The notes below the pieces were generated by a model, which made no database searches, was not told the origin of the DNA, and saw nothing but the letters and a program-made list of their open reading frames with translations. Positions 20,294 to 53,267 of a stretch of DNA of 64,000 nt are shown piece by piece. Within the stretch, counting starts at the first letter, position 1, and each line of letters starts with the position of its first letter. Source of the DNA: Promethearchaeota archaeon (GTDB lineage: Archaea > Asgardarchaeota > Heimdallarchaeia > Hodarchaeales > Hodarchaeaceae); NCBI GenBank assembly GCA_048938105.1, contig JBHLMN010000002.1, positions 346,214-410,213 on the forward strand, in the 5' to 3' direction. Made by a program: the position numbers and the translations under genes.

Positions 20294-20950
20294 ATGAGAT
20301 ATATCATTGTGAAAATAATAGGAGTACCTTTCTTAATTCTTTTCATGAATCTTGGCTTCATTTTAGTAGCTAGGGAAGTATTCAGCAATCTTTCAACAAT
20401 AGTCCCAATTCTTCTTCTTGATGCATTTATCTGTATAGATATCATTATAAGACCAATTTCTGCAAAAAAAGATAAGTTTAATCGATTTATTAGTGCAATT
20501 TCATTTTTATTAATACCAATCTGGTTTACATTACCATATTTTGAGTTCAAAGTGCTAATTTCTAAAAGTCTTCCTTCCTTCATATTAAATTGTGTATCAA
20601 TAATTGGAACTGTATTACTTGTTTTCGGAGGCCTTCTCTTGTTATTTAACCGGATACATCTAGGAAAATATGGCGGTCCAAAGCTTGTAATTGAAGAAGA
20701 ACACCAGCTAATAACCACAGGTCTGTATAAATTTGTTCGACACCCTATGTATTCTGGATTCTTAATCTTATTTTTTGGTTACTCTTTAGCTTTCGGGAGT
20801 ATTCTCATGACAATTACGATAACAACTGTTTTATTTCTAATATTTAAAACACGAATGGATATTGAGGAAAAACTACTAATAACAGAGTTCGGTGAAGAGT
20901 ATTCTACATATATGAAGCGAACTAAGCGGTTGTTCCCTTTATTGTATTAA
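20294..20950 (+). CDS. Isoprenylcysteine carboxyl methyltransferase (ICMT/PEMT) family membrane protein
   Basis: HQLITTGLYKFVRHPMY, EEKLL..FGEEY..Y. Confidence 0.9.
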   Translation: MRYIIVKIIGVPFLILFMNLGFILVAREVFSNLSTIVPILLLDAFICIDIIIRPISAKKDKFNRFISAISFLLIPIWFTLPYFEFKVLISKSLPSFILNCVSIIGTVLLVFGGLLLLFNRIHLGKYGGPKLVIEEEHQLITTGLYKFVRHPMYSGFLILFFGYSLAFGSILMTITITTVLFLIFKTRMDIEEKLLITEFGEEYSTYMKRTKRLFPLLY

Positions 20951-21022
20951 TAATTGTTTTTTAATTCAAGAAAGACTAAATCTCAGGGCATTACACATAT
21001 AGTAATTATAGGAGGTCAGAAA

Positions 21023-21901
21023 ATGGGAATAGAAAAAACTTCCAGTTACCATGAAGTTGAACTTATTGAAGAAGAAGCATCAGCTCTCTATGAGTTGGAG
21101 GAAATAACTAGATTGAAAATACCAAGTGGGAAATGTGGATTTTATAACTCAGGTTTCAAATTTAAAGACAAAAAAATTATCGGATTAAGCCTTCATCATA
21201 GAGAAATGTCCTATCTGCCTGGATGTATAGGTAATTTTCGCTACATTCAGAAATTGTATTTACGTGACAATCAACTAAGCGCTCTCCCTGATTGGATAGG
21301 TGACTTGCAAAATTTAAAGAATTTAGATGTATTCAATAACCAAATAAAATCCTTACCCAAGAGTATAGGAAAATTAGTGAACCTAGAGAGACTAGATTTA
21401 TCACGAAATCAGACGAAGAAATTACCAAAAAGCATAGGAAATCTAAAGAGGCTTAAGAGGTTAGGCTTGTTACATGTTCAATTGGAGTGTCTCCCACAAT
21501 CTATTGGAGAGTTAATAAACCTCCGAGATTTATGTGCAAACATAAATTACTTGAAATCATTACCTGAGTCACTTGGAAATTTAACCAAGCTTAAAGATTT
21601 AAGTCTTCATAAAAATCAATTAATAGCTGTTCCAGAAACTCTGGGAAACTTACAAAACCTAGAAGTATTAAGTTTACATAATAATAAATTGACTTTTCTT
21701 CCTGATAGCATTGGAAAATTAACTGAATTGAAAACATTAAGACTTGAGAATAATCGTTTGAATACACTGCCTTTAAATATTAAAAACTTAAAAAACCTTC
21801 AAAGTCTATGGATTGGCAATAATTTATTTGATAAGTTGTCTGACGAATTGGAAAACTGGATTAAATACCTGAAATCCTCAGGATGTAAGGTTAGGAGATA
21901 G
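21023..21901 (+). CDS. Leucine-rich repeat protein (about nine 23-aa LRRs)
   Basis: Repeated LPxxIGxLxxLxxLxLxxNxL; ATG at 21023 follows GGAGG. Confidence 0.93.
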   Translation: MGIEKTSSYHEVELIEEEASALYELEEITRLKIPSGKCGFYNSGFKFKDKKIIGLSLHHREMSYLPGCIGNFRYIQKLYLRDNQLSALPDWIGDLQNLKNLDVFNNQIKSLPKSIGKLVNLERLDLSRNQTKKLPKSIGNLKRLKRLGLLHVQLECLPQSIGELINLRDLCANINYLKSLPESLGNLTKLKDLSLHKNQLIAVPETLGNLQNLEVLSLHNNKLTFLPDSIGKLTELKTLRLENNRLNTLPLNIKNLKNLQSLWIGNNLFDKLSDELENWIKYLKSSGCKVRR

Positions 21902-21984
21902 ACAAAAATCATAAAAATAAAAGATGCCAGAATATAATTAAGTTAATTTGTAGAGTTTACCTAAGAATCCCATAGTGATCAATT

Positions 21985-23163
21985 ATGCCCATAAACCTGA
22001 ATCGTGAAGCACAAGTTGAATGGGATAAGTACTTAGAGGCCTCTTCAATCGATGACCAGATTTTTCACTTGGAAAGATTTCTTGGGGTCTGCGTGAAACA
22101 TAAGGGAGTCGAGAAACACTTAGCTATGGCTAAAACTAAATTAAAGAAGCTCAAAGCCCAAAAAGCGAAACTAACTAAATCAAAAAAAGGTTCAGGGGAA
22201 AAATGGCTTGTTCCTAAGGGAGAAGATGCCCAAATTGCAATAATAGGGAATGTTAATTCTGGAAAATCATCCGTTCTGAATGTTCTTGCTCAATCAGAGG
22301 CAGCGAAGGTAGGATCATATCCTTTTACAACAGTTAAACCAGAAGTGGGATCGATCACAGCAAACGGAGCACGTCTGCAGCTCGTAGAACTACCTGCATT
22401 GGTGGAAGGAAGCGTGAAGGGCGAGATGTCTGGAAAATTGGTTTTAGCAGGGATTCGTAATGCTGACTGTGTGCTGATTACAGTAGATTTATCGAAAGAT
22501 CCAGTTCAGCAGCTTCAGATTATTCTAACTGAACTAAGCAATGGAAAAATTCGCTTGAACATGTCAAAGCCTCCTGTGACTATCGAGAAAGTTGGTTCAG
22601 GTAATATCCAAGTGTTTAATGAACATTTTTTTGAGGGTGAAGGAGGGAAAGAGGCTGTAATTGAGGTTATGCGGGGTAATGGCTTTCTGAATGCCATTGT
22701 ACGTTTTCATGGGCCTGTTACAGTTGATCAATTTCTAGATGCACTCGATAAGACGATAACTTACCTTCCTGCCATAATTGTGGCCACAAAAGGAGACTTA
22801 GAAGGGTCTAGGCTGAAATACGAAACCCTTATTCAGTTTATAAACGGGTCCAACTTTAATTTTCAGGTCATACCAACATCTACTTTACAAAATGAGGGAT
22901 TTGAGGGAATGGAGGAAATTATATTCAATCAACTAGGAAAAATCCGTGTCTTTACTAGGGATGCTAAAGGAGAGATTGCTGAAAGACCTATCATATTGAA
23001 AAAAGGAAGTACAGTTGAAAATGCTATCCAAGTGTTAAGTAAAAAAATGTTGAAATTCTTCCGTTTCACTCGTATTTGGGGAAGTTCGGCAAAGTTTGAT
23101 GGAGAGAAAGTGGGATTGGATCGTGTTTTACACGATGGAGACGTGATTCAAGTTTTTGCGTAG
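21985..23163 (+). CDS. DRG/OBG-family GTPase with TGS domain
   Basis: G1 GNVNSGKS, G2 YPFTT, G4 TKGD, TGS tail IWGSSAKFDGEKVG...LHDGDV. Confidence 0.9.
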   Translation: MPINLNREAQVEWDKYLEASSIDDQIFHLERFLGVCVKHKGVEKHLAMAKTKLKKLKAQKAKLTKSKKGSGEKWLVPKGEDAQIAIIGNVNSGKSSVLNVLAQSEAAKVGSYPFTTVKPEVGSITANGARLQLVELPALVEGSVKGEMSGKLVLAGIRNADCVLITVDLSKDPVQQLQIILTELSNGKIRLNMSKPPVTIEKVGSGNIQVFNEHFFEGEGGKEAVIEVMRGNGFLNAIVRFHGPVTVDQFLDALDKTITYLPAIIVATKGDLEGSRLKYETLIQFINGSNFNFQVIPTSTLQNEGFEGMEEIIFNQLGKIRVFTRDAKGEIAERPIILKKGSTVENAIQVLSKKMLKFFRFTRIWGSSAKFDGEKVGLDRVLHDGDVIQVFA

Positions 23164-23284
23164 ACAAAATTACCATAAGAAAGATTCAGTTTCTTTGCGA
23201 AAATCAAAAAAGTTTTAAATGTTTGCGTCACTTATTCAAACAGAGCAATATTTGTGCAAATAATACTCAAGACTGATCCCTAAG

Positions 23285-24301
23285 ATGGAGCAACAGAGTT
23301 CCCTTCCCGTTGATGAAAATGCCTTTCCAAGATTTCTTGAAGGTAAAGATTTCTATTCAATGTTTTTTGAAGCTTTCAATAAGTTAGCAAGATATATTGA
23401 TCTGATTAATGATATCAATGTATTTCCTGTGCCTGACGGTGATACTGGAATTAATATGTACCAGACTTTTAGATCAATTGTTAATGAAATTAAAAATGTT
23501 AAGGAAAGTAATCATTGTGGTAAGATCATTTCTGCTGCATCTCTTGGAGCTTTTCGGGGTAGTGTTGGTAATTCTGGAATTATCCTAGCAGAATATTTTC
23601 GTGGTTTAGAAAAGATCTGTGGATATTTTTATACTATTGACAGTGTCTTATTTGCTAGGGGATTAAAATCAGCAGCTACCCTAGCCTATCAAGCTGTAGA
23701 GCATCCTAAGGAGGGAACTATTCTTACTGTAGCCCGAATAATCGCAGAAACAGCTATGAAGTGGGCTAATACTTTAATTAGTCCTTATGAGTTACTTTTT
23801 TTAGTTTTTGATAAGGCAAAAATAGCTTTACTAGACACTCATCGTCTTTTGCATGAAGCAAACTTCGCTGGAGTTGTTGATGCAGGAGCAATAGGTTTAG
23901 TCCTCATCTTTGAGGGATTTATTAGCGCACTAGTTCGTAAACCCCAAATTATTATCACCTCATTTCAAACCATTGATGAGGATTTACTTCCATTTTTAAA
24001 ACCAAAAATCAATTCACAAGAGAATAACCCAGAATTTGAGTTAATCTTTAGAATTAGTAATTTAATGAAGCCTTTAGATCTCATTAAAGTTGAGCTTAGG
24101 AAGGAAGGAAACTGCCTTTTAGTTATCAGTAATGATTCATTATCAGAAATTAAAGTTCATATTCATTGTTCTAATCCCAACAAAGTTATAAGCAAAATGA
24201 GAAGTTTTGTTGGTTCTTTCGAATTAATTTCGATTCAGGCATTACATGAGCAAAATCTCGAGCTCATTGAACGTATTGAAAAGACTGTAAAAGTTGATTA
24301 G
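23285..24301 (+). CDS. fakA: Fatty acid kinase catalytic subunit (DAK2/FakA-like; lacks the C-terminal domain)
   Basis: INVFPVPDGDTGINM, GNSGIIL, AYQAV..PKEGTILTV, GVVDAGA, KVHIH. Confidence 0.88.
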   Translation: MEQQSSLPVDENAFPRFLEGKDFYSMFFEAFNKLARYIDLINDINVFPVPDGDTGINMYQTFRSIVNEIKNVKESNHCGKIISAASLGAFRGSVGNSGIILAEYFRGLEKICGYFYTIDSVLFARGLKSAATLAYQAVEHPKEGTILTVARIIAETAMKWANTLISPYELLFLVFDKAKIALLDTHRLLHEANFAGVVDAGAIGLVLIFEGFISALVRKPQIIITSFQTIDEDLLPFLKPKINSQENNPEFELIFRISNLMKPLDLIKVELRKEGNCLLVISNDSLSEIKVHIHCSNPNKVISKMRSFVGSFELISIQALHEQNLELIERIEKTVKVD

Positions 24302-24303
24302 CA

Positions 24304-25191
24304 TTGAAAGTTGGTATCGTTACCGATTCAATGAGTGATTTATCTCCTGAGCTTGCTAAAAAATATGGGATTGTAATTGTGCCTGGAACAGTGTTTATTG
24401 ATAATAACCCTTATCGTAGCGGAATCGATATATTTCCAAGTGATATTGAAGACCTTATAATAGAAAATAGTAAGAAAATAAGCACAGGAGCACCTTCTGC
24501 AGCAGAATATTACAACGCCTATACACACCTTTATGATATTGTGGATATTATTCTAAGTATTCATAGTCCTAGTAAGGTTACAGCTACTTCGAGTGTGGCA
24601 AGAGTTGCAGCTAAACGATTAGAAGATCCAACGAGAGTAATTAGATTCGAATGTGGTGTTGGATCCTTGGGGTTAGGCTTAACCGCAATTGCAGCGGCTA
24701 TCACAGCAAAACAAGTGAGGGAACTATCAGAACTACTTCAAAGAGTCGCAGAATACTGTGAGAGGATTCAGATCATTGGAACCCTTGATTCATTCAAATA
24801 TCTTCAGAGAAGCGGACGAGTCAAACTAAAAATTACTGGTTTTCTGGCGAATGCTCTCTCTGTTAAACCTGTATTAATGATGCACGGAGATGATATTATT
24901 CTTTTAGAAAAACCACGAAATCGGCAAAAGGCTCTTGATTTTATGATTGAATCAGTGATTAAAAATATTGACATGAAATGTATCCCGAAAATGATAGGAA
25001 TAGGCCATTTCAGTTGTGTTGAAGAAGCGAGAGGAGTTGAGGGTATTATCAGACAGAATTTTCCTGAACATGAGATTATCCAGGGAAACGTTGATCCAAT
25101 GATCGTTGCTCATACAGGCCCAGGGTTGATCTTGCTTTCATTTTTCGGTACATTAGATAATTCAGATAGAGGAGAAAGCATCAATGATTGA
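24304..25191 (+). CDS. fakB: DegV-family fatty-acid-binding protein (FakB)
   Basis: IVTDSMSDL, STGAPS, YLQRSGR, LSVKPVL, AHTGPG. Confidence 0.9.
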   Translation: MKVGIVTDSMSDLSPELAKKYGIVIVPGTVFIDNNPYRSGIDIFPSDIEDLIIENSKKISTGAPSAAEYYNAYTHLYDIVDIILSIHSPSKVTATSSVARVAAKRLEDPTRVIRFECGVGSLGLGLTAIAAAITAKQVRELSELLQRVAEYCERIQIIGTLDSFKYLQRSGRVKLKITGFLANALSVKPVLMMHGDDIILLEKPRNRQKALDFMIESVIKNIDMKCIPKMIGIGHFSCVEEARGVEGIIRQNFPEHEIIQGNVDPMIVAHTGPGLILLSFFGTLDNSDRGESIND

Positions 25192-25861
25192 AGTCCTAGT
25201 AGCAGGATTTTTTGGATATCTGATGGGGTCAATTTTCATTTCCTATTTTCTAGTTTATTTTGTCAAAGGAATCGATTTGACGAAAGTAGGAACTGGTCAA
25301 TTAGGCGCATCAAATACTGGGCGAATTTTAGGATGGCCAGTAATGATTCTTGTGGGTTTATTTGATATTTTTAAAGCAGCCTTTGCTCTTTTCGTCATAA
25401 CGTTTTTTTTTGGATCTTCTCCTTGTTATGGGGCTACAATTATCCTTAGTAGCTGCGGTATTATTATTGGGCATACTCATTCGCTTCTGATCTATTTACA
25501 TAAAAGGGAATGGTGTGGAGGAAAGGGTGGAGCTCCTCTCGGTGGTGTGATCTTTTTTCTTTCTTGGGAGAGTTTTTTGATTCTTTATTTCTTTTTAATG
25601 CCTTTGATCCAACTTGGGAAAAGACTGTGGAAAAAACAAAGCATATATGAAAACTTCATTCCCAATGCTATTGTTGGGTTTTTCACTCCCTTTGTCGTTT
25701 TATATTTAACTGGTAATCCGCTTTACGTATTTTTAATCCTATTGCTACTAGGAATTATTGTTTATTCCGAGAGAGAAAAGGTCAAGAGTATTTTATTCCC
25801 TAATTCAGATGATAAAGATTCTATATCAAGTTCTTATCTTGGGATTAATAAGAGCTATTAA
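25184..25861 (+). CDS. plsY: Acyl-phosphate:glycerol-phosphate acyltransferase PlsY-like
   Basis: YLMGSI, DLTKVGTGQLGASNTGR (motif 1), DIFK, GH, GGKGGA (motif 2); multiple TM helices. Confidence 0.85.
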   Translation: MIEVLVAGFFGYLMGSIFISYFLVYFVKGIDLTKVGTGQLGASNTGRILGWPVMILVGLFDIFKAAFALFVITFFFGSSPCYGATIILSSCGIIIGHTHSLLIYLHKREWCGGKGGAPLGGVIFFLSWESFLILYFFLMPLIQLGKRLWKKQSIYENFIPNAIVGFFTPFVVLYLTGNPLYVFLILLLLGIIVYSEREKVKSILFPNSDDKDSISSSYLGINKSY

Positions 25862-26042: not shown

Positions 26043-28826
26043 ATGGATGAATATTGGCATTCAGAGAATCTCAACGTTTTATTCGATCAATTGGGAGTGG
26101 ATGATAGTGGTTTATCGGATGCAGACGCTGAACAAAGACTCAGACAATATGGCCTAAATGAATTAGAGCGAGCAGAGAAGAAACATCCGATATTTCTTTT
26201 TTTTGCTCAATTCACAGATCCATTAGTTATAATTTTACTTGCTGCTTTGGTTATATCAGTCAGTATAGGGATTTTTTCTCCTGATGAGCATCAGCGATTG
26301 GAGTATTTCATTGATGCTCTTGCGATTTCCGCCATAATAACGTTCAACGCGTTTTTTGGGTTTATTCAAGAGTACAAAGCCGAGAAATCAATTGAAGCAC
26401 TGAAATCAATGGCAGCTCCCTTTACCACAGTCGTTCGTGAGGGGAAGAAGCAGAGAATTGAAGCCCAATATCTTGTACCTGGAGATGTCATCATAATAGA
26501 AGAAGGAGACAAGATTCCTGCGGATGGCCGCCTGCTTGAATCGCATTCTTTGCGCGTCGATGAATCCGCGCTTACTGGAGAGTCTTTTCCTGCTGCAAAA
26601 GAAGCAATGAGTCAACCTATGCCCTATGCACCAATCGCGGATCGTGAAAATTCAGTATATAGTGGTACTAATGTTACAAGAGGTCGTGGTCAAGCTTTAA
26701 TTATTAAAACTGGCATGCAAACCGAGTTTGGTAAGATTGCAAAAGGTTTATTGGAAGAAAAGGTTGAAGAAACTCCTCTTCAAAAGAGATTAGCTACTCT
26801 CGGAAAATGGATTGGAATAGCTAGTTTGACCATTTGTGCTATCATATTCATCATCGGTGTGCTTCTACAGCGAGGAGCTATTGAAATGTTCATTGTTGCT
26901 GTTGGTTTAGCTGTAGCAGCTGTTCCAGAGGGCCTTCCTGCTGTTGTTACACTTGCCTTAGCTCTTGGAGTTCAACGTATGAGTCGGAAAAATGCTATTA
27001 TTAGACGACTTCCCTCTGTTGAGACCCTAGGTTCAACAACAGTCATTTGCTCCGATAAAACTGGAACTCTTACGAGAAACAAAATGACTGTTCGGAAAAT
27101 TCTTACTGTAGATGATGAATACAATGCTTCTAAAAACACTCCTATGAATGATGTACTTAGTTTGATTCTTACCATCGGTTCAGAATGCAACAATGCACAG
27201 CTTGCAGATTCTGAAAGGAAGAATGAGGGGGAATCAAAGGAAGTTGATATTGGTGATCCGACAGAAATTGCCATATTAAGAGTCGCAGAAAGAATGAACA
27301 TGTTTGATTCGACGAAAGTACGATATAAGCGATTGTATGAGGTACCCTTTGATTCTGACTCGAAACGTATGAGTGTATTAGTACAAAACCTCCAGGGGGA
27401 ATACTTTGTATTCACGAAGGGAGCTCCTGATGTTCTAATTAGCTTATGCGCATATTACTTCTCTAATGGAGAAATTAAACCTCTTAATGATGAAACACGT
27501 GTTAAATTAGAAGAAGCAGAGCAGAATCTTGCAAAGACTGGTTATCGAATGCTTGGAATGGCTTTTAAATCTGTAGATCCAAAAACAGCCAAAATTGACA
27601 AAATCTTATTATCCGAGGATACCGAAGAGATTGAGTCTCAACTGGTCTATGTTGGAGCCATGGCTATCATGGATCCTCCAAGAAAGGGTACCAAGGCTGC
27701 CATTGAAACTTGTAAGAATGCAGGTATTCGACCAGTCATGATTACTGGTGATCATCTTAAAACAGCTGTCGCGGTGGCAGCTGAAATCGGATTAGTGTCA
27801 TCGAACGAGCCAACACGATCAATGGAAGGAAGTGAATTGGCTAAAATTAGTGATGAAGAGCTTGCAAGAGTAGTTATGGATGTAAATATTTTTGCTCGGG
27901 TATCACCAGAACACAAACTCAAACTAGTTTCTGCTTTAAAATCCCATAATGAGATTGTTGCTATGACTGGGGATGGAGTTAATGATGCACCTGCTTTAAA
28001 ACATGCTGATATAGGAGTAGCAATGGGTATTGCTGGAACAGATGTATCAAAAGAAGCCTCAGACATGATTTTAGCGGACGATGATTTTTCAACCATTATT
28101 GGTGCAGTTCTTGAAGGAAGAACGATATATGATAATATGAGAAAATTTATTCTCTACTTGCTTTCCTGTAATGCAGGGGAAATTGCAGTTATGTTTTTTG
28201 GAATTCTTCTCACATCACTCATTTTTCAGACACCAATATTGCCTCTTCTTGCAATTCAAATTCTTTGGGTTAATTTAATAACTGATGGACTTCCAGCTCT
28301 TGCAATGGGAGTTGATCCCCCTGACCCTGATGTTATGATCAGACAACCACGCGATCCTAAAGAGCCAATTCTCACACGAAAGTCAGTGTTTTTCATAATA
28401 TATTCAGGATTCATTATTGCAGTTGGAACATTATTCTTATTTTTCTTATATATGTATTCTGATGTTTTTACTGGTCAGCTTCCTTCTGAAGACACTCGAA
28501 TCCGTGCACAAACAGTTGCTTTTACAATGCTGATTATGTTTCAGATGATTATGGCTATAAACATTCGGAAAGAAGAGCATTCATTACTTGGGAAAGAGTT
28601 CGTTCGAAATCCTTACCTTTTACTTGCTATTGCAAGTTCAGTCGTTCTTCATATATTAATAGTCTACATTCCTTTTTTCCAACCATTTTTTAACACTATT
28701 GAACTTAATCCTTTTGATTGGTTTATGATAATTGCTCTTGGGAGTATTCTTATAATAGTGGATGAAGTACGAACATTCATCGCACATAAAATACCTCGGT
28801 TACAAAAGATAGCAGGATACTGGTGA
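26043..28826 (+). CDS. P-type IIA (SERCA-like) Ca2+-transporting ATPase
   Basis: TGES, PEGL, DKTGT, KGAPD, GDGVND; M5 LSCNAGE and M6 WVNLITDG Ca-site residues. Confidence 0.93.
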   Translation: MDEYWHSENLNVLFDQLGVDDSGLSDADAEQRLRQYGLNELERAEKKHPIFLFFAQFTDPLVIILLAALVISVSIGIFSPDEHQRLEYFIDALAISAIITFNAFFGFIQEYKAEKSIEALKSMAAPFTTVVREGKKQRIEAQYLVPGDVIIIEEGDKIPADGRLLESHSLRVDESALTGESFPAAKEAMSQPMPYAPIADRENSVYSGTNVTRGRGQALIIKTGMQTEFGKIAKGLLEEKVEETPLQKRLATLGKWIGIASLTICAIIFIIGVLLQRGAIEMFIVAVGLAVAAVPEGLPAVVTLALALGVQRMSRKNAIIRRLPSVETLGSTTVICSDKTGTLTRNKMTVRKILTVDDEYNASKNTPMNDVLSLILTIGSECNNAQLADSERKNEGESKEVDIGDPTEIAILRVAERMNMFDSTKVRYKRLYEVPFDSDSKRMSVLVQNLQGEYFVFTKGAPDVLISLCAYYFSNGEIKPLNDETRVKLEEAEQNLAKTGYRMLGMAFKSVDPKTAKIDKILLSEDTEEIESQLVYVGAMAIMDPPRKGTKAAIETCKNAGIRPVMITGDHLKTAVAVAAEIGLVSSNEPTRSMEGSELAKISDEELARVVMDVNIFARVSPEHKLKLVSALKSHNEIVAMTGDGVNDAPALKHADIGVAMGIAGTDVSKEASDMILADDDFSTIIGAVLEGRTIYDNMRKFILYLLSCNAGEIAVMFFGILLTSLIFQTPILPLLAIQILWVNLITDGLPALAMGVDPPDPDVMIRQPRDPKEPILTRKSVFFIIYSGFIIAVGTLFLFFLYMYSDVFTGQLPSEDTRIRAQTVAFTMLIMFQMIMAINIRKEEHSLLGKEFVRNPYLLLAIASSVVLHILIVYIPFFQPFFNTIELNPFDWFMIIALGSILIIVDEVRTFIAHKIPRLQKIAGYW

Positions 28827-28846
28827 ATAATTGATGTAAAGAAAGA

Positions 28847-28878
28847 TTAGGTTCGATTATTCAATGACTTGAACCTAA
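28847..28878 (+). terminator. Hairpin after the P-type ATPase
   Basis: TTAGGTTCGA...TTGAACCTAA, 10-bp stem with one G-U pair, 20 nt after the stop. Confidence 0.45.
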
Positions 28879-29009
28879 AGATGGAAAATACTAATAAATA
28901 AAGAGAAGACAAAAAACAAGGATATCAATGATGTAAAGTGTCTTTAAGAACGAGTACTCTTTTGAAAATATAAACAAATAACTCACTTTCAGAAAGATGG
29001 GGTACACAA

Positions 29010-30518
29010 TTGGTTTCAATACTAAGAACCAGAGTTTCTCGCATATCTAATGCAGTGATATTTTTCGCATTAGCTTTGGTTCAAATCGTGATTGTTTCAT
29101 GGATTAGTATTAGCCAAGAGGCGAAACCAGAATTTTTGGAATTCCAATGGATTACTCAGTGGCATTTTTTAGGTTTTTATATTTCTATCAACCCTATGGC
29201 TGATCCTAGATTCACTGTTTTGTTAATAGTACTAACGGCTGGGCTGCAATTATTATTATTAGGATTTCTGGTAAATGTTGTGTTTTCAAATAAAAATATG
29301 GTTCAGATTTACCCTGAACCGTTATATGGTCCTTCTTATGCTCCTGAAGAAGCTCCATTGGTTGATAAAACAATCGAACTAGTAACAAGAGTTTCAAAAA
29401 AGGTGAGAATTAAAGTTAAAAAGATCTTTGTTTATCGAAAAGCGGTACCTAACGCATTTTCTCTTGATCTTCTGCCAATTCCTTTTTTTCGAAGACCATA
29501 CTTAGTTCTTAACACTAATGTTTTAGAAATTCTGAATGATAACGAAATTGAGGCAGTTATTGCTCATGAACTTGCCCACGTTAAAAATAGTGATAGTCTA
29601 ATTCGATTAATATTATCTATTCCCCGTTTGTTCCTTAATCTTGTTTATATCTTTATATACCTACAAATCGTTACAGGTATATTAGTTGCAATTTTTGATA
29701 CTTTTAATCCTGGAATAGCCTTAGAACGAGTTATTTTCCTGGGATTAATGTATTTGATTATAGCAATTGTCACAAAAATAACAGTTCATTTTCTTTCCTC
29801 CGCTAATCGTCAGGCTGAATATCTGGCAGATTATTTTGCAGCTACTTTGGTTGGTTCAGATGTTTTAATTAACTCTTTAATTCATCTAGGCCAACGGAGT
29901 GAAACAATGCAAGTGCTATCCCGAGAGATTGAGTGGCTTGCGAGTCTTTCAGAAGAGAAAAAGCCTTCTAGTACATTTCTAGGGAGGATTTATCAGCGGT
30001 TTCCCAAAACACAACTCAATGAGGATGTTGCTCGTGAAATTGCCCCAAAAATCTTCTTAGAAGAGAAACTTGAAGAGCTTGTGACTCATTACGGTATAGA
30101 TCTAGATATAGGGGAGAGGATACAGCTTGTAAATAGGGCTGTTCCTGTTTTACTAAAAAAGAGAGCTAAATATTTTATATCATTAGAAAAAAAAAGAGAA
30201 AAAGAAAATGAAGTAGACTTAACTCCTAGCATTCTAAAAGCAAAAACAATCGATTGGCGACATTTTGACTACAATGCCAGTCAAACCCTCGAAGACGAGG
30301 AAATTGAAAGTTTTATTGCCACGTTAATTGCTCAACCAGATAAAATGGTTTTTGAGCACGAGCTTTTTCAAACACCAGAAAAAGACGGTGATCACCCAAA
30401 CTTTCGAGAAAGAATTCTTAGAATCTTCCGTATCTTTCATCTGAATGAGTATGAGAAGATTGTAGAGCAAATTGCCTCTGAAATCCCATCAAAAGTCGTT
30501 TCTGATTCTCAATCATAA
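29010..30518 (+). CDS. M48/HtpX-like membrane zinc protease with a large cytoplasmic insertion
   Basis: PNAF, AVIAHELAH (HEXXH), QAEYLAD, HPNFRERI; TM helices. Confidence 0.88.
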   Translation: MVSILRTRVSRISNAVIFFALALVQIVIVSWISISQEAKPEFLEFQWITQWHFLGFYISINPMADPRFTVLLIVLTAGLQLLLLGFLVNVVFSNKNMVQIYPEPLYGPSYAPEEAPLVDKTIELVTRVSKKVRIKVKKIFVYRKAVPNAFSLDLLPIPFFRRPYLVLNTNVLEILNDNEIEAVIAHELAHVKNSDSLIRLILSIPRLFLNLVYIFIYLQIVTGILVAIFDTFNPGIALERVIFLGLMYLIIAIVTKITVHFLSSANRQAEYLADYFAATLVGSDVLINSLIHLGQRSETMQVLSREIEWLASLSEEKKPSSTFLGRIYQRFPKTQLNEDVAREIAPKIFLEEKLEELVTHYGIDLDIGERIQLVNRAVPVLLKKRAKYFISLEKKREKENEVDLTPSILKAKTIDWRHFDYNASQTLEDEEIESFIATLIAQPDKMVFEHELFQTPEKDGDHPNFRERILRIFRIFHLNEYEKIVEQIASEIPSKVVSDSQS

Positions 30519-52436: not shown

Positions 52437-53267
52437 CTATTGATAGAATTCAATTAGATCTTGAATTTGGGTTGGAGGGACACGAGTAAGTTTGTGGAGT
52501 AACTTATTGAATTCGTTCTGTTTGTTTGAAGAAACAGTAATATCTTCAATCTTTTTGTTAAATTTTAACTCAAGAAATTTAATATAATGTTTTTCTGTTT
52601 GTAGAAACAAGTTTCGTAATGAATACATAATATTATTAGTTATTTCTCTAGCTTTAGGGAAGAAATCAGCATCAGATTCAGTCCATCCCCCTTTGCGAGA
52701 ATATTGATGAAAATAGACTGGTTTTCCAAAGGAAATTGAGATATAGGATCCAAATTTTGGAATAATTGTCCCTGGTCTCAAAACTTCAGCTGTTCCATGA
52801 ATGTATACTGGCATTACTGGGATTTTACCATTTGTGGTGAGAACGATTCTACCGATTCCTGTGCGCCCTTCTTCAGCTAAGCTAAAATAGTCATGAAATG
52901 GGGTTCTATGAATTCGTCTACCTTGAGGAGTTATTAACACAGCAAAACCTTCTAATACGGATTTAGAGCTATAATCAAGGGCAGGTTTTGGATTCTCTCG
53001 GAAAATCGGTATTGCTCCTAAAATTAAGAGTATTCGACCAAAAAGTGTTCCTAACAGAATTTTTCCCGAGGCGATGAAGCCAAGGAATTTTCTTGGTCCA
53101 AAAGGTGAGAGAATGGCACTAATAACCATAAAACCGTCCAAATGAGATTGATGATTAATACACAAGATAATACCTTTACCTTCGGGAAATTTGTCTAAGT
53201 TCTCTCCTCCAATTATTTCAAACCGAAAAAAAAATCGAATAACTCGGGGTAAAAACGGTGTTAACAT
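52437..53267 (-). CDS. plsC: 1-acyl-glycerol-phosphate acyltransferase (PlsC family)
   Basis: NHQSHLD (HX4D), GAIPIFR, TPQGRR, VMPVYIHGT, FGKP. Confidence 0.85.
   Translation of the reverse strand: MLTPFLPRVIRFFFRFEIIGGENLDKFPEGKGIILCINHQSHLDGFMVISAILSPFGPRKFLGFIASGKILLGTLFGRILLILGAIPIFRENPKPALDYSSKSVLEGFAVLITPQGRRIHRTPFHDYFSLAEEGRTGIGRIVLTTNGKIPVMPVYIHGTAEVLRPGTIIPKFGSYISISFGKPVYFHQYSRKGGWTESDADFFPKAREITNNIMYSLRNLFLQTEKHYIKFLELKFNKKIEDITVSSNKQNEFNKLLHKLTRVPPTQIQDLIEFYQ

Follow-up and report, generated by a model that had tools for sequence, protein, structure and literature searches.

The window analyzed here is a stretch of 64,000 nucleotides (nt) from the genome of a Promethearchaeota archaeon of the Hodarchaeales (contig JBHLMN010000002.1). 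Three adjacent open reading frames (ORFs) on its forward strand, at positions 23285-25861, code in this order for a FakA-like kinase, a DegV/FakB-like carrier, and a PlsY-fold membrane acyltransferase. The kinase (23285-24301; 338 amino acids, aa) has a Dak2 ATP-binding domain and a FakA middle domain, and lacks the C domain onto which FakB docks. The TAG stop of its gene is followed by a gap of 2 nt (24302-24303) and then by the TTG start of the gene for the DegV/FakB-like fatty-acid carrier (24304-25191; 295 aa), which is credible because the conserved N-terminus of DegV (MK.GIVTDS) begins exactly there. The carrier gene in turn overlaps by 8 nt (25184-25191, ATGATTGA) the acyltransferase gene (25184-25861; 225 aa), whose ATG has a Shine-Dalgarno-like AGGAG 6-15 nt on its 5′ side and whose product has a conserved acyl-phosphate site and a remodelled glycerol-phosphate pocket. 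The tight linkage pointed out in a preliminary description of this DNA can thus be read directly in the sequence. Each of the three families has one copy in the source genome.

The 121 nt upstream of the kinase gene (23164-23284, forward strand) are AT-rich, contain a TATA-like TTTTAAAT at 23213-23220, and form a putative archaeal promoter. A terminator-like hairpin with a T-run lies at 23116-23151, at the end of the preceding GTPase gene. A sigma-70 promoter model, which does not apply to archaea, found no excess of sites over shuffled sequence, and neither a tRNA nor an Rfam element was found within the window. Protein identities, fold, motifs, linkage, gene fusion, selection, and phyletic pattern together make it rather probable that the three genes are one operon, in which a minimal fatty acid kinase would be coupled to a PlsY-type acyltransferase. 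The survey of these genes covers 300 genomes of the phylum, and the class of the source organism counts 82 genomes and its own family (f1) 19.

A Two-Domain Kinase and Its DegV Partner

The kinase matches the Pfam models Dak2 (99 bits) and FakA-like_M (40 bits), both above their gathering cut-offs, and the FakA_N structures 7RM7 and 8VIP of the Protein Data Bank (PDB) with E 2e-35 and the PDGDTG segment aligned. The Mg-ATP motif DGDTG is kept in the kinase and conserved in all Asgard and bacterial rows aligned. The models of the entire protein are covered only in their first part: model positions 1-302 of 530 for TIGR03599 (YloV; 228 bits for a cut-off of 396) and 3-319 of 549 for NF038248 (FakA; 168 bits for a cut-off of 975). 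The FakA C domain (PF13684), which binds FakB, has no match anywhere in the source genome, which is 99% complete. A split FakA was considered and rejected: PF13684 is not found elsewhere in the genome, and the gene downstream of the kinase codes for a genuine DegV (170 bits) and not for a FakA_C that became separate. None of the closest 24 relatives of the kinase (~230-367 residues) has the C domain, and the Dak2 and middle domains are both present in 22; the next matches are bacterial proteins of ~540 residues with all three FakA domains.

The middle domain presents a further difference. The zinc site of Staphylococcus aureus FakA is a structural site formed by a Cys and two His (C240, H282, and H284) (PMC10848957, PMC11617999), and the mutations C240A and C240S cripple the enzyme (PMC9136124). 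The archaeal kinase keeps the HxH motif and does not have the complete Cys-His-His set: the column of the ligand Cys is occupied by Glu in 12 of the 12 kinases of its own family, and by Cys in the families f2, f4, and f7. A Glu-His-His metal site is plausible from these residues. Hence, the kinase is not the full bacterial-type FakA of the preliminary description, as it has neither the FakB-binding C domain nor the zinc-ligand Cys.

The loss of the C domain does not preclude kinase activity, because the S. aureus construct FakA_NL (residues 1-327) is dimeric and an active fatty acid kinase in vitro (Subramanian et al. 2022, PMC9136124), with an apparent KM for FakB1 that is 11-fold higher than that of the full enzyme (0.99 µM versus 0.09 µM; PMC9136124). 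By analogy, the archaeal kinase would be a natural equivalent of this construct, and it is predicted to be active. The two share the N and L/M domains and a length of ~330 residues. They differ in that FakA_NL is artificial and has a weaker affinity for FakB, whereas the archaeal kinase is natural and selected, and may have evolved direct docking of DegV.

Two further observations concern kinases elsewhere. The protein P0123 (353 aa, from a JGI metagenome) has Dak2 and FakA_M domains with high scores, the canonical Cys, and no C domain, and groups with the bacterial three-domain FakAs; non-Asgard organisms may therefore have the two-domain layout as well, or P0123 may come from another archaeal lineage. 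In family f3 (L052:5218-5847, forward strand; L053:5835-6518, reverse strand; G026) there are two short Dak2-only proteins of ~210-240 aa without the FakA middle domain. These represent a third kinase architecture, in genomes that also have many DegV and two to five PlsY genes.

The carrier is a clear member of the DegV family, with 170 bits for PF02645 (cut-off of 27) and 190 bits for TIGR00762 (cut-off of 99.7), and scores 92 bits against the FakB1 equivalog, for which 350 are required. It is 24-29% identical to characterized FakBs, and 23 solved structures of DegV/FakB proteins match it, that of S. aureus FakB2 among them (4X9X, E 2e-20). In FakB, the carboxylate of the fatty acid is bound by a network of Thr, Ser, and His plus an Arg (PMC10848957). 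Upon alignment with 4X9X, the carboxylate-binding Thr, Ser, and His and the Arg at the tunnel mouth correspond to Thr, Thr, His, and Arg in the archaeal protein. Given these residues, the carrier looks competent for fatty-acid binding.

The model proposed for Streptococcus suis has FakA_C take the fatty acid and build the reaction pocket jointly with FakA_N (PMC10848957). Because FakA_C is absent in the archaeon, DegV probably docks straight on the Dak2 domain, like DhaK on DhaL. The authors of the S. suis study regard FakA as an evolutionary mimic of DhaK/DhaL (PMC10848957). In both systems, a Dak2 (DhaL) subunit holds the nucleotide, and the substrate it acts on is presented by a second, separate subunit with an EDD fold. 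The archaeal system differs in that the holder is a DegV with a lipid tunnel, the FakA middle domain is present, and there is no DhaM/PTS (phosphotransferase system) partner.

The PlsY-Fold Acyltransferase and Its Acceptor Pocket

The third protein matches PF02660 (G3P_acyltransf) with 79 bits for a cut-off of 24, and TIGR00023 with 66.8 bits for an equivalog cut-off of 137.2. Its AlphaFold2 model, made from an alignment of 48 sequences, has a pLDDT of 92 and a pTM of 0.88. A Foldseek search with this model retrieves only the PlsY structures 5XJ5-5XJ8 (TM score of 0.70 on the query and 0.77-0.81 on the target, probability 1.00), and the next match has E = 2.4. The protein has thus the PF02660 domain and, as modeled, the seven-helix fold of PlsY.

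The states of the PlsY motifs agree between pairwise, multiple, and profile alignments, and are given in the numbering of the Aquifex aeolicus protein (PDB 5XJ5-5XJ9). There, the acyl-phosphate site consists of His92, Thr41, and the backbone of residues 104-107 (Li et al. 2017, PMC5700162), and the pocket for sn-glycerol-3-phosphate (G3P) of a phosphate clamp (Ser35, Arg45, Lys104, and Asn180) and of Ser142 and His177, which contact the 2-OH (PMC5700162). The archaeal protein shares with its Aquifex homolog the seven-helix fold and the acyl-phosphate site, which is invariant or nearly so in its clade: His92 (its His97), the hydroxyl at position 41 (as Ser43), and the GGKG phosphate-hole loop (G112-G113-K114-G115). 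Arg45 and Lys104 of the phosphate clamp are also kept. The differences are two inserts, of 5 residues before the GGKG loop and of 9 residues before the Ser142 region, and four substitutions in the pocket (S35T, N37Q, H177E, with Asp in a few proteins, and N180K). Ser35, His177, and Asn180, three of the six G3P-binding side chains of the Aquifex structure, thereby become Thr37, Glu196, and Lys199 of the archaeal protein, and for the column of Ser142 two alignments disagree, owing to the 9-residue insert. The four substitutions are invariant or nearly so in the clade of the window protein and rare among ~120 other PlsY representatives, which mostly have H-x-x-N. This clade is small: among 1.84 billion representatives, 4 clusters match with E < 1e-30 and 14 with E < 1e-10.

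In Aquifex PlsY, S35T keeps 17% of the activity, no side chain replaces His177, and the N180A, N180Q, N180H, and N180D mutants lose most of their activity (PMC5700162). The conservation of the substitutions suggests a remodelling of the pocket rather than decay. As the pocket stays polar and basic, gaining Lys180 as a third basic residue, it would fit a phosphorylated small acceptor; and as two of the changes are at or near contacts of the stereocenter, sn-glycerol-1-phosphate (G1P) is the obvious candidate. One would therefore expect an altered acceptor preference, with G1P as the first candidate, G3P still possible, or another acceptor. Bacterial PlsY is itself not stereospecific and takes both G1P and G3P (PMC13400652). 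The archaeal protein is not an ordinary G3P acyltransferase, and the lysophosphatidic acid on G3P that was initially put forward as the product is not assured, since three of the six side chains holding G3P are changed, including H177 and N180, where mutations nearly abolish the activity of Aquifex PlsY.

Distribution, Gene Fusion, and Native Origin

The three genes closely co-occur. In the own family, PlsY-like, DegV, and Dak2 genes are present in 9, 9, and 8 of the 19 genomes, and these are the same genomes. All but one of the 19 have either the three genes or none, the exception being G135, where Dak2 alone is missing, on a 3-kb contig. Every own-family locus of sufficient length, 8 in 7 genomes, has the order kinase-DegV-PlsY. 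In the 10 other genomes the cassette was not found, including one that is a single contig and 96% complete, and the cassette looks accessory in this family. One of these ten genomes (G192), without DegV or Dak2, has two weaker matches to the PlsY family model (E 2e-17) that were missed with the window PlsY as query, possibly a different type of PlsY.

A second family of the Heimdall group, f7, has the same gene order in at least 6 genomes, with canonical proteins (161 bits for PlsY, 246 for DegV, 145 for Dak2, and 83 for FakA_M); its PlsY motifs are the canonical GSGN...R and HRENI. In the sister family f2, which belongs to the same taxonomic order, PlsY, Dak2, and FakA_M are in one ORF of 585-598 aa, directly followed by a DegV gene that overlaps it by 4 nt in both loci read. 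The fusion has an Arf-like GTPase gene and archaeal Nre genes as neighbors, and a large protein database contains four clusters of f2-type fusions (571-588 aa). In the fusion the kinase follows the C-terminus of PlsY, an end that should be cytoplasmic if the active site of the seven-helix domain opens to the cytoplasm, an orientation that we infer. Recurrent order, a second family, and the fusion show that the linkage of kinase, DegV, and PlsY is not due to chance.

With the family model, PlsY is found in 72 of the 82 genomes of the class, and in every genome of the class outside the own family. The choice of query matters here, as in f3 the divergent window protein finds PlsY in 6 of 29 genomes, an undercount, versus 31 of 31 for the family model. 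Taken together, the cassette is an old trait of the whole Heimdall-group class, kept by vertical descent, and the version in the window is its most derived form.

Other families of the Heimdall group show expansions of paralogs (e.g., in G122, G258, G288, and G026), with at least 7 scored DegV matches per genome in two families, up to 29 DegV candidates, and, in f7, as many as 13 PlsY matches in one genome. Bacteria typically have one to four copies of FakB, far fewer than this. Such expansions suggest diversified lipid substrates. In another class, family f14 has a PlsY-like domain at the N-terminus of ~400-aa proteins (L050:4716-5921, reverse strand; L051, which is G173:C6:54000-66000), often in tandem arrays of three to four copies. 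Their third motif is also noncanonical and their C-terminal ~200 residues match no Pfam family. In f14 genomes no DegV was found, and a DhaL-type Dak2 is present in 2 of 68.

As the three families are mainly bacterial and the contamination of the genome bin (5.85 Mb, 99% complete) is estimated at 7.25%, one might suspect a bacterial contaminant, a chimeric join, or a recent and decaying transfer. This is very unlikely and already contradicted by several lines of evidence. The source contig is at least 410 kb long and bears the archaeal lipid gene CarS, ~60 kb from the operon, as well as other eukaryote-like or archaeal genes. The G+C content of the three genes (0.35-0.38) is like that of the window (~0.35), which also encodes a wyosine/Tyw1-type radical SAM (S-adenosylmethionine) enzyme, HypF, and Hdr-like proteins. 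The flanking genes for a DRG-type GTPase, a P-type ATPase, and an M48 protease are common to two relatives. The nearest homologs of the kinase and of the PlsY-like protein are all from metagenome-assembled genomes labelled Hod-, Heimdall-, Thor-, Odin-, or "Prometh"-archaeota. Finally, purifying selection acts on all three genes, with pairwise dN/dS values of 0.15-0.18 in the kinase, 0.20-0.28 in DegV, and 0.21-0.35 in PlsY. Contig size, composition, synteny, homolog names, phylogeny, and selection thus lead us to reject contamination or chimerism, in agreement with the archaeal surroundings of like composition described initially.

The phylogenetic trees point the same way. All Asgard kinases are on one side of a branch with 99% support that separates them from 47 bacterial three-domain FakAs, and those of the own family form a clade with 100% support. 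Because this tree is unrooted and its bacterial set is limited to the 47 best matches, an old transfer and shared ancestry look alike in it. For PlsY, the own family and the fusion family join in a clade with 98% support on a long stem; no bacterial donor can be named, because the backbone of the tree is unresolved (64 of 137 inner forks have less than 80% support). The two trees, neither rooted nor broadly sampled, exclude a recent transfer and name no donor. Conserved order across genomes and these trees thus bear out the native origin of the operon.

The flanks of the operon (20294-23163 and 26043-30518) code for an ICMT/PEMT-type membrane methyltransferase, a leucine-rich repeat protein, the DRG-type GTPase (MMR_HSR1 and TGS domains), the P-type ATPase, and the M48 protease. 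The ATPase is PMR1/SERCA-like (754 bits for a cut-off of 798).

Lipid Genes, Mechanism, and Meaning

PlsX was not found in the source genome, which rejects a PlsY fed by PlsX and makes the kinase the only predicted source of acyl-phosphate. The route is thus independent of the acyl carrier protein (ACP), as the preliminary description had it, in the sense that PlsX is not found; an 83-aa ACP-like ORF is a marginal match. The search for glpK, gpsA, and cdsA had a mixed outcome. GlpK is present (712 bits for a cut-off of 590), GpsA was not found in the source genome and is rejected as the source of G3P, and the CdsA-like match is weak. Two genes resemble the G1P dehydrogenase G1PDH (345 and 280 bits), which is their best family, under the cut-off of 413 bits. 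Since both GlpK and G1PDH-like genes are present, G3P and G1P are probably both available to the cell. The better G1PDH-like gene (G000:C52:399494-400597, or L059:494-1597 on the reverse strand) has an open frame of 368 codons with its first ATG, GTG, or TTG 65 codons in, inside the conserved domain, which suggests an unusual start codon or a sequence error. A GGGPS-family gene and CarS are also present.

The source genome has five genes of the PlsC family (PF01553), one of which (52437-53267, reverse strand; 276 aa) is in the window, 27 kb downstream of the operon, and is a candidate for the second acylation step, with scores far under any equivalog cut-off. At least one PlsC-family gene is present in 23 of 23 genomes of the taxonomic order. 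The operon is therefore self-contained only in part: beyond the linked set of kinase, carrier, and PlsY, a second acylation and the addition of a head group would depend on PlsC-family genes elsewhere and on the weak CdsA-like match.

In the mechanism we propose, DegV would hold a free fatty acid with its carboxylate exposed and would dock directly on the kinase domain, as DhaK on DhaL. The Dak2 domain of the two-domain kinase would bind ATP-Mg, its middle domain would dimerize around a Glu-His-His metal site, and the kinase would phosphorylate the carboxylate to yield an acyl-phosphate. This labile compound would pass to the seven-helix PlsY-like membrane enzyme, which would ester-link the acyl chain to an acceptor of the phospho-glycerol type, releasing phosphate, and PlsC-like enzymes may add a second chain. 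As the cassette is dispensable in its own family, it likely serves to scavenge or recycle free fatty acids, which would end up in ester-linked lipid.

Several observations weigh against this mechanism. The zinc-ligating Cys of FakA, whose mutation cripples the S. aureus enzyme, aligns with Glu in this kinase, and H177 and N180, positions at which substitutions strongly impair Aquifex PlsY, align with Glu and Lys. The scores are under the NCBIfam equivalog cut-offs for FakA, FakB1, and PlsY. Every chemical step is deduced from genes, motifs, and a model. Since no cassette was found in 10 of the 19 genomes of its own family, membranes there cannot depend on it. In the view of Coleman et al., archaeal PlsY and PlsC are unlikely to act in membrane synthesis (PMC6431249), and the first cultured Lokiarchaeon is cited as showing archaeal lipids only, the citing authors noting that the method could miss esters (PMC13400652).

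The closest alternative is the canonical bacterial pathway, where PlsY uses the acyl-phosphate made by FakAB to acylate position 1 of G3P, and PlsC-like enzymes turn the resulting lysophosphatidic acid into phosphatidic acid. G3P can be made, given the high score of GlpK, five PlsC-family genes are at hand, Arg45 and Lys104 of the phosphate clamp are kept, f7 has the same operon with a fully canonical PlsY, and bacterial PlsY is not stereospecific anyway (PMC13400652). The pathway is nevertheless unlikely, if still worth serious attention, since S35T, N37Q, H177E/D, and N180K are conserved in the clade and nearly absent from the ~120 other PlsY representatives, at positions that contact the phosphate and the 2-OH of G3P and that allow little change in the Aquifex enzyme (PMC5700162), and since GpsA was not found. 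A more specific proposal, speculative and with rather little chance of being right as a whole, is that the variant PlsY (Thr35, Gln37, Glu177, and Lys180) is specialized for G1P or for an ether lyso-lipid such as geranylgeranylglyceryl phosphate (GGGP). Cells with the cassette would then make ester or mixed ester/ether lipids on the archaeal stereo-backbone from scavenged fatty acids, and the unfused layout of kinase plus DegV would be the ancestral one of fatty acid kinase, to which a DegV copy was later fused as FakA_C.

The same chemistry up to acyl-phosphate might instead serve in detoxification or buffering of fatty acids, in signalling, or with a nonglycerol acceptor (another phospho-alcohol or an ether lyso-lipid). 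The accessory status of the cassette, its remodelled acceptor pocket, and the many DegV copies and up to 13 PlsY matches in other families of the class, which suggest diversified substrates, would all fit, and Fak also affects fatty-acid resistance and virulence regulation in S. aureus (PMC11617999). Yet two basic residues of the phosphate clamp are kept and a third is gained (Lys at 180), fitting a phosphorylated small acceptor, and nothing in the operon points to another one, so that we find this doubtful. Improbable by comparison with these is the action of carrier and kinase on another carboxylic acid, for example an isoprenoid acid leading to an isoprenoyl ester lipid. The host does have GGGPS, CarS, and G1PDH-like genes for isoprenoid ether lipids, and an identity of just 24-29% to characterized FakBs leaves the specificity of the tunnel free; yet all characterized ligands of DegV/FakB are fatty acids, and nothing speaks positively for an isoprenoid one.

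The coupling of a fatty acid kinase to PlsY in a single operon thus remains the reading we favor, and its closest known counterpart is the FakA/FakB-PlsY system of firmicutes (S. aureus, S. suis, and the YloV/DegV of Bacillus subtilis; PDB 7RM7, 7W7H, and 4X9X). The two have in common a Dak2 domain with DGDTG, a middle domain with HxH, a separate DegV carrier with the Thr/Ser/His/Arg site, and a PlsY-fold enzyme as likely consumer. In contrast, the archaeal kinase lacks the C domain (the dock of FakB and, in the S. suis model, the recipient of the fatty acid) and has Glu for the zinc-ligand Cys; there is no PlsX in the archaeon and so no exchange with acyl-ACP; and the archaeal genes are in one operon, with PlsY and kinase in one protein in f2, in a host with ether-lipid genes.

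Homologs of PlsY and PlsC have already been published from Asgard and other archaea (Coleman et al. 2019, PMC6431249; Manoharan et al. 2019, PMC6737245; PMC13400652), and Villanueva et al. 2017, as cited, is also among the reports on archaeal "orphan" PlsY. These reports deal with PlsY (and PlsC) by itself; no PlsX was found in them, and the acyl donor was left unexplained (PMC6431249, PMC6737245). The gene described here is of the same family, from the same phylum, and has been discussed in the same context of the lipid divide; it differs from the orphans in that the kinase expected to make the donor is physically linked or fused to PlsY. No report of a native fatty acid kinase in Asgard archaea was found in the searchable literature, subscription papers and supplementary tables being outside its scope; a study that joins the two subjects uses the B. 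subtilis enzymes as a reagent. The present window contributes the derived Hodarchaeales-type form, with its remodelled PlsY pocket and Glu for the zinc Cys, the PlsY-kinase fusion in the sister family, and the near all-or-none pattern of the cassette in about half of a family. The route to ester or chimeric phospholipids put forward in the preliminary description gains support from a native, linked set of kinase, carrier, and PlsY; it loses ground as a main membrane pathway, since the cassette looks accessory (not found in 10 of 19 genomes).

The relevance to eukaryogenesis that was also claimed is weakened. Eukaryotes use acyl-CoA-dependent glycerol-3-phosphate acyltransferases (GPATs), and are not known to use PlsY or Fak. 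The enzymes of the cassette are not ancestors of these GPATs. The link is indirect. Published trees do not join archaeal PlsY to eukaryotic enzymes (PMC6431249).

The presence of fatty-acyl ester lipids in Asgard archaea has been debated since 2017-2019, one obstacle being that PlsY seemed to have no source of acyl-phosphate in the absence of PlsX. The conserved operon, and the fusion in one lineage, supply the predicted missing acyl-phosphate donor for Asgard PlsY, and thereby reduce the question of ester lipids to three clonable proteins and a published coupled FakAB-PlsY assay (PMC13400652). The remodelled acceptor pocket poses a sharp and falsifiable choice between G3P and G1P, and the natural two-domain kinase bears on the dispute over the roles of the C and middle domains of FakA (PMC9136124 versus PMC10848957). 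If the specialization for G1P or GGGP were true, cells with the cassette would show in living form the hybrid membrane that has been postulated for the lipid transition from archaea to eukaryotes. In close relatives of eukaryotes, the cassette thus provides a clonable test of the making of ester lipids.

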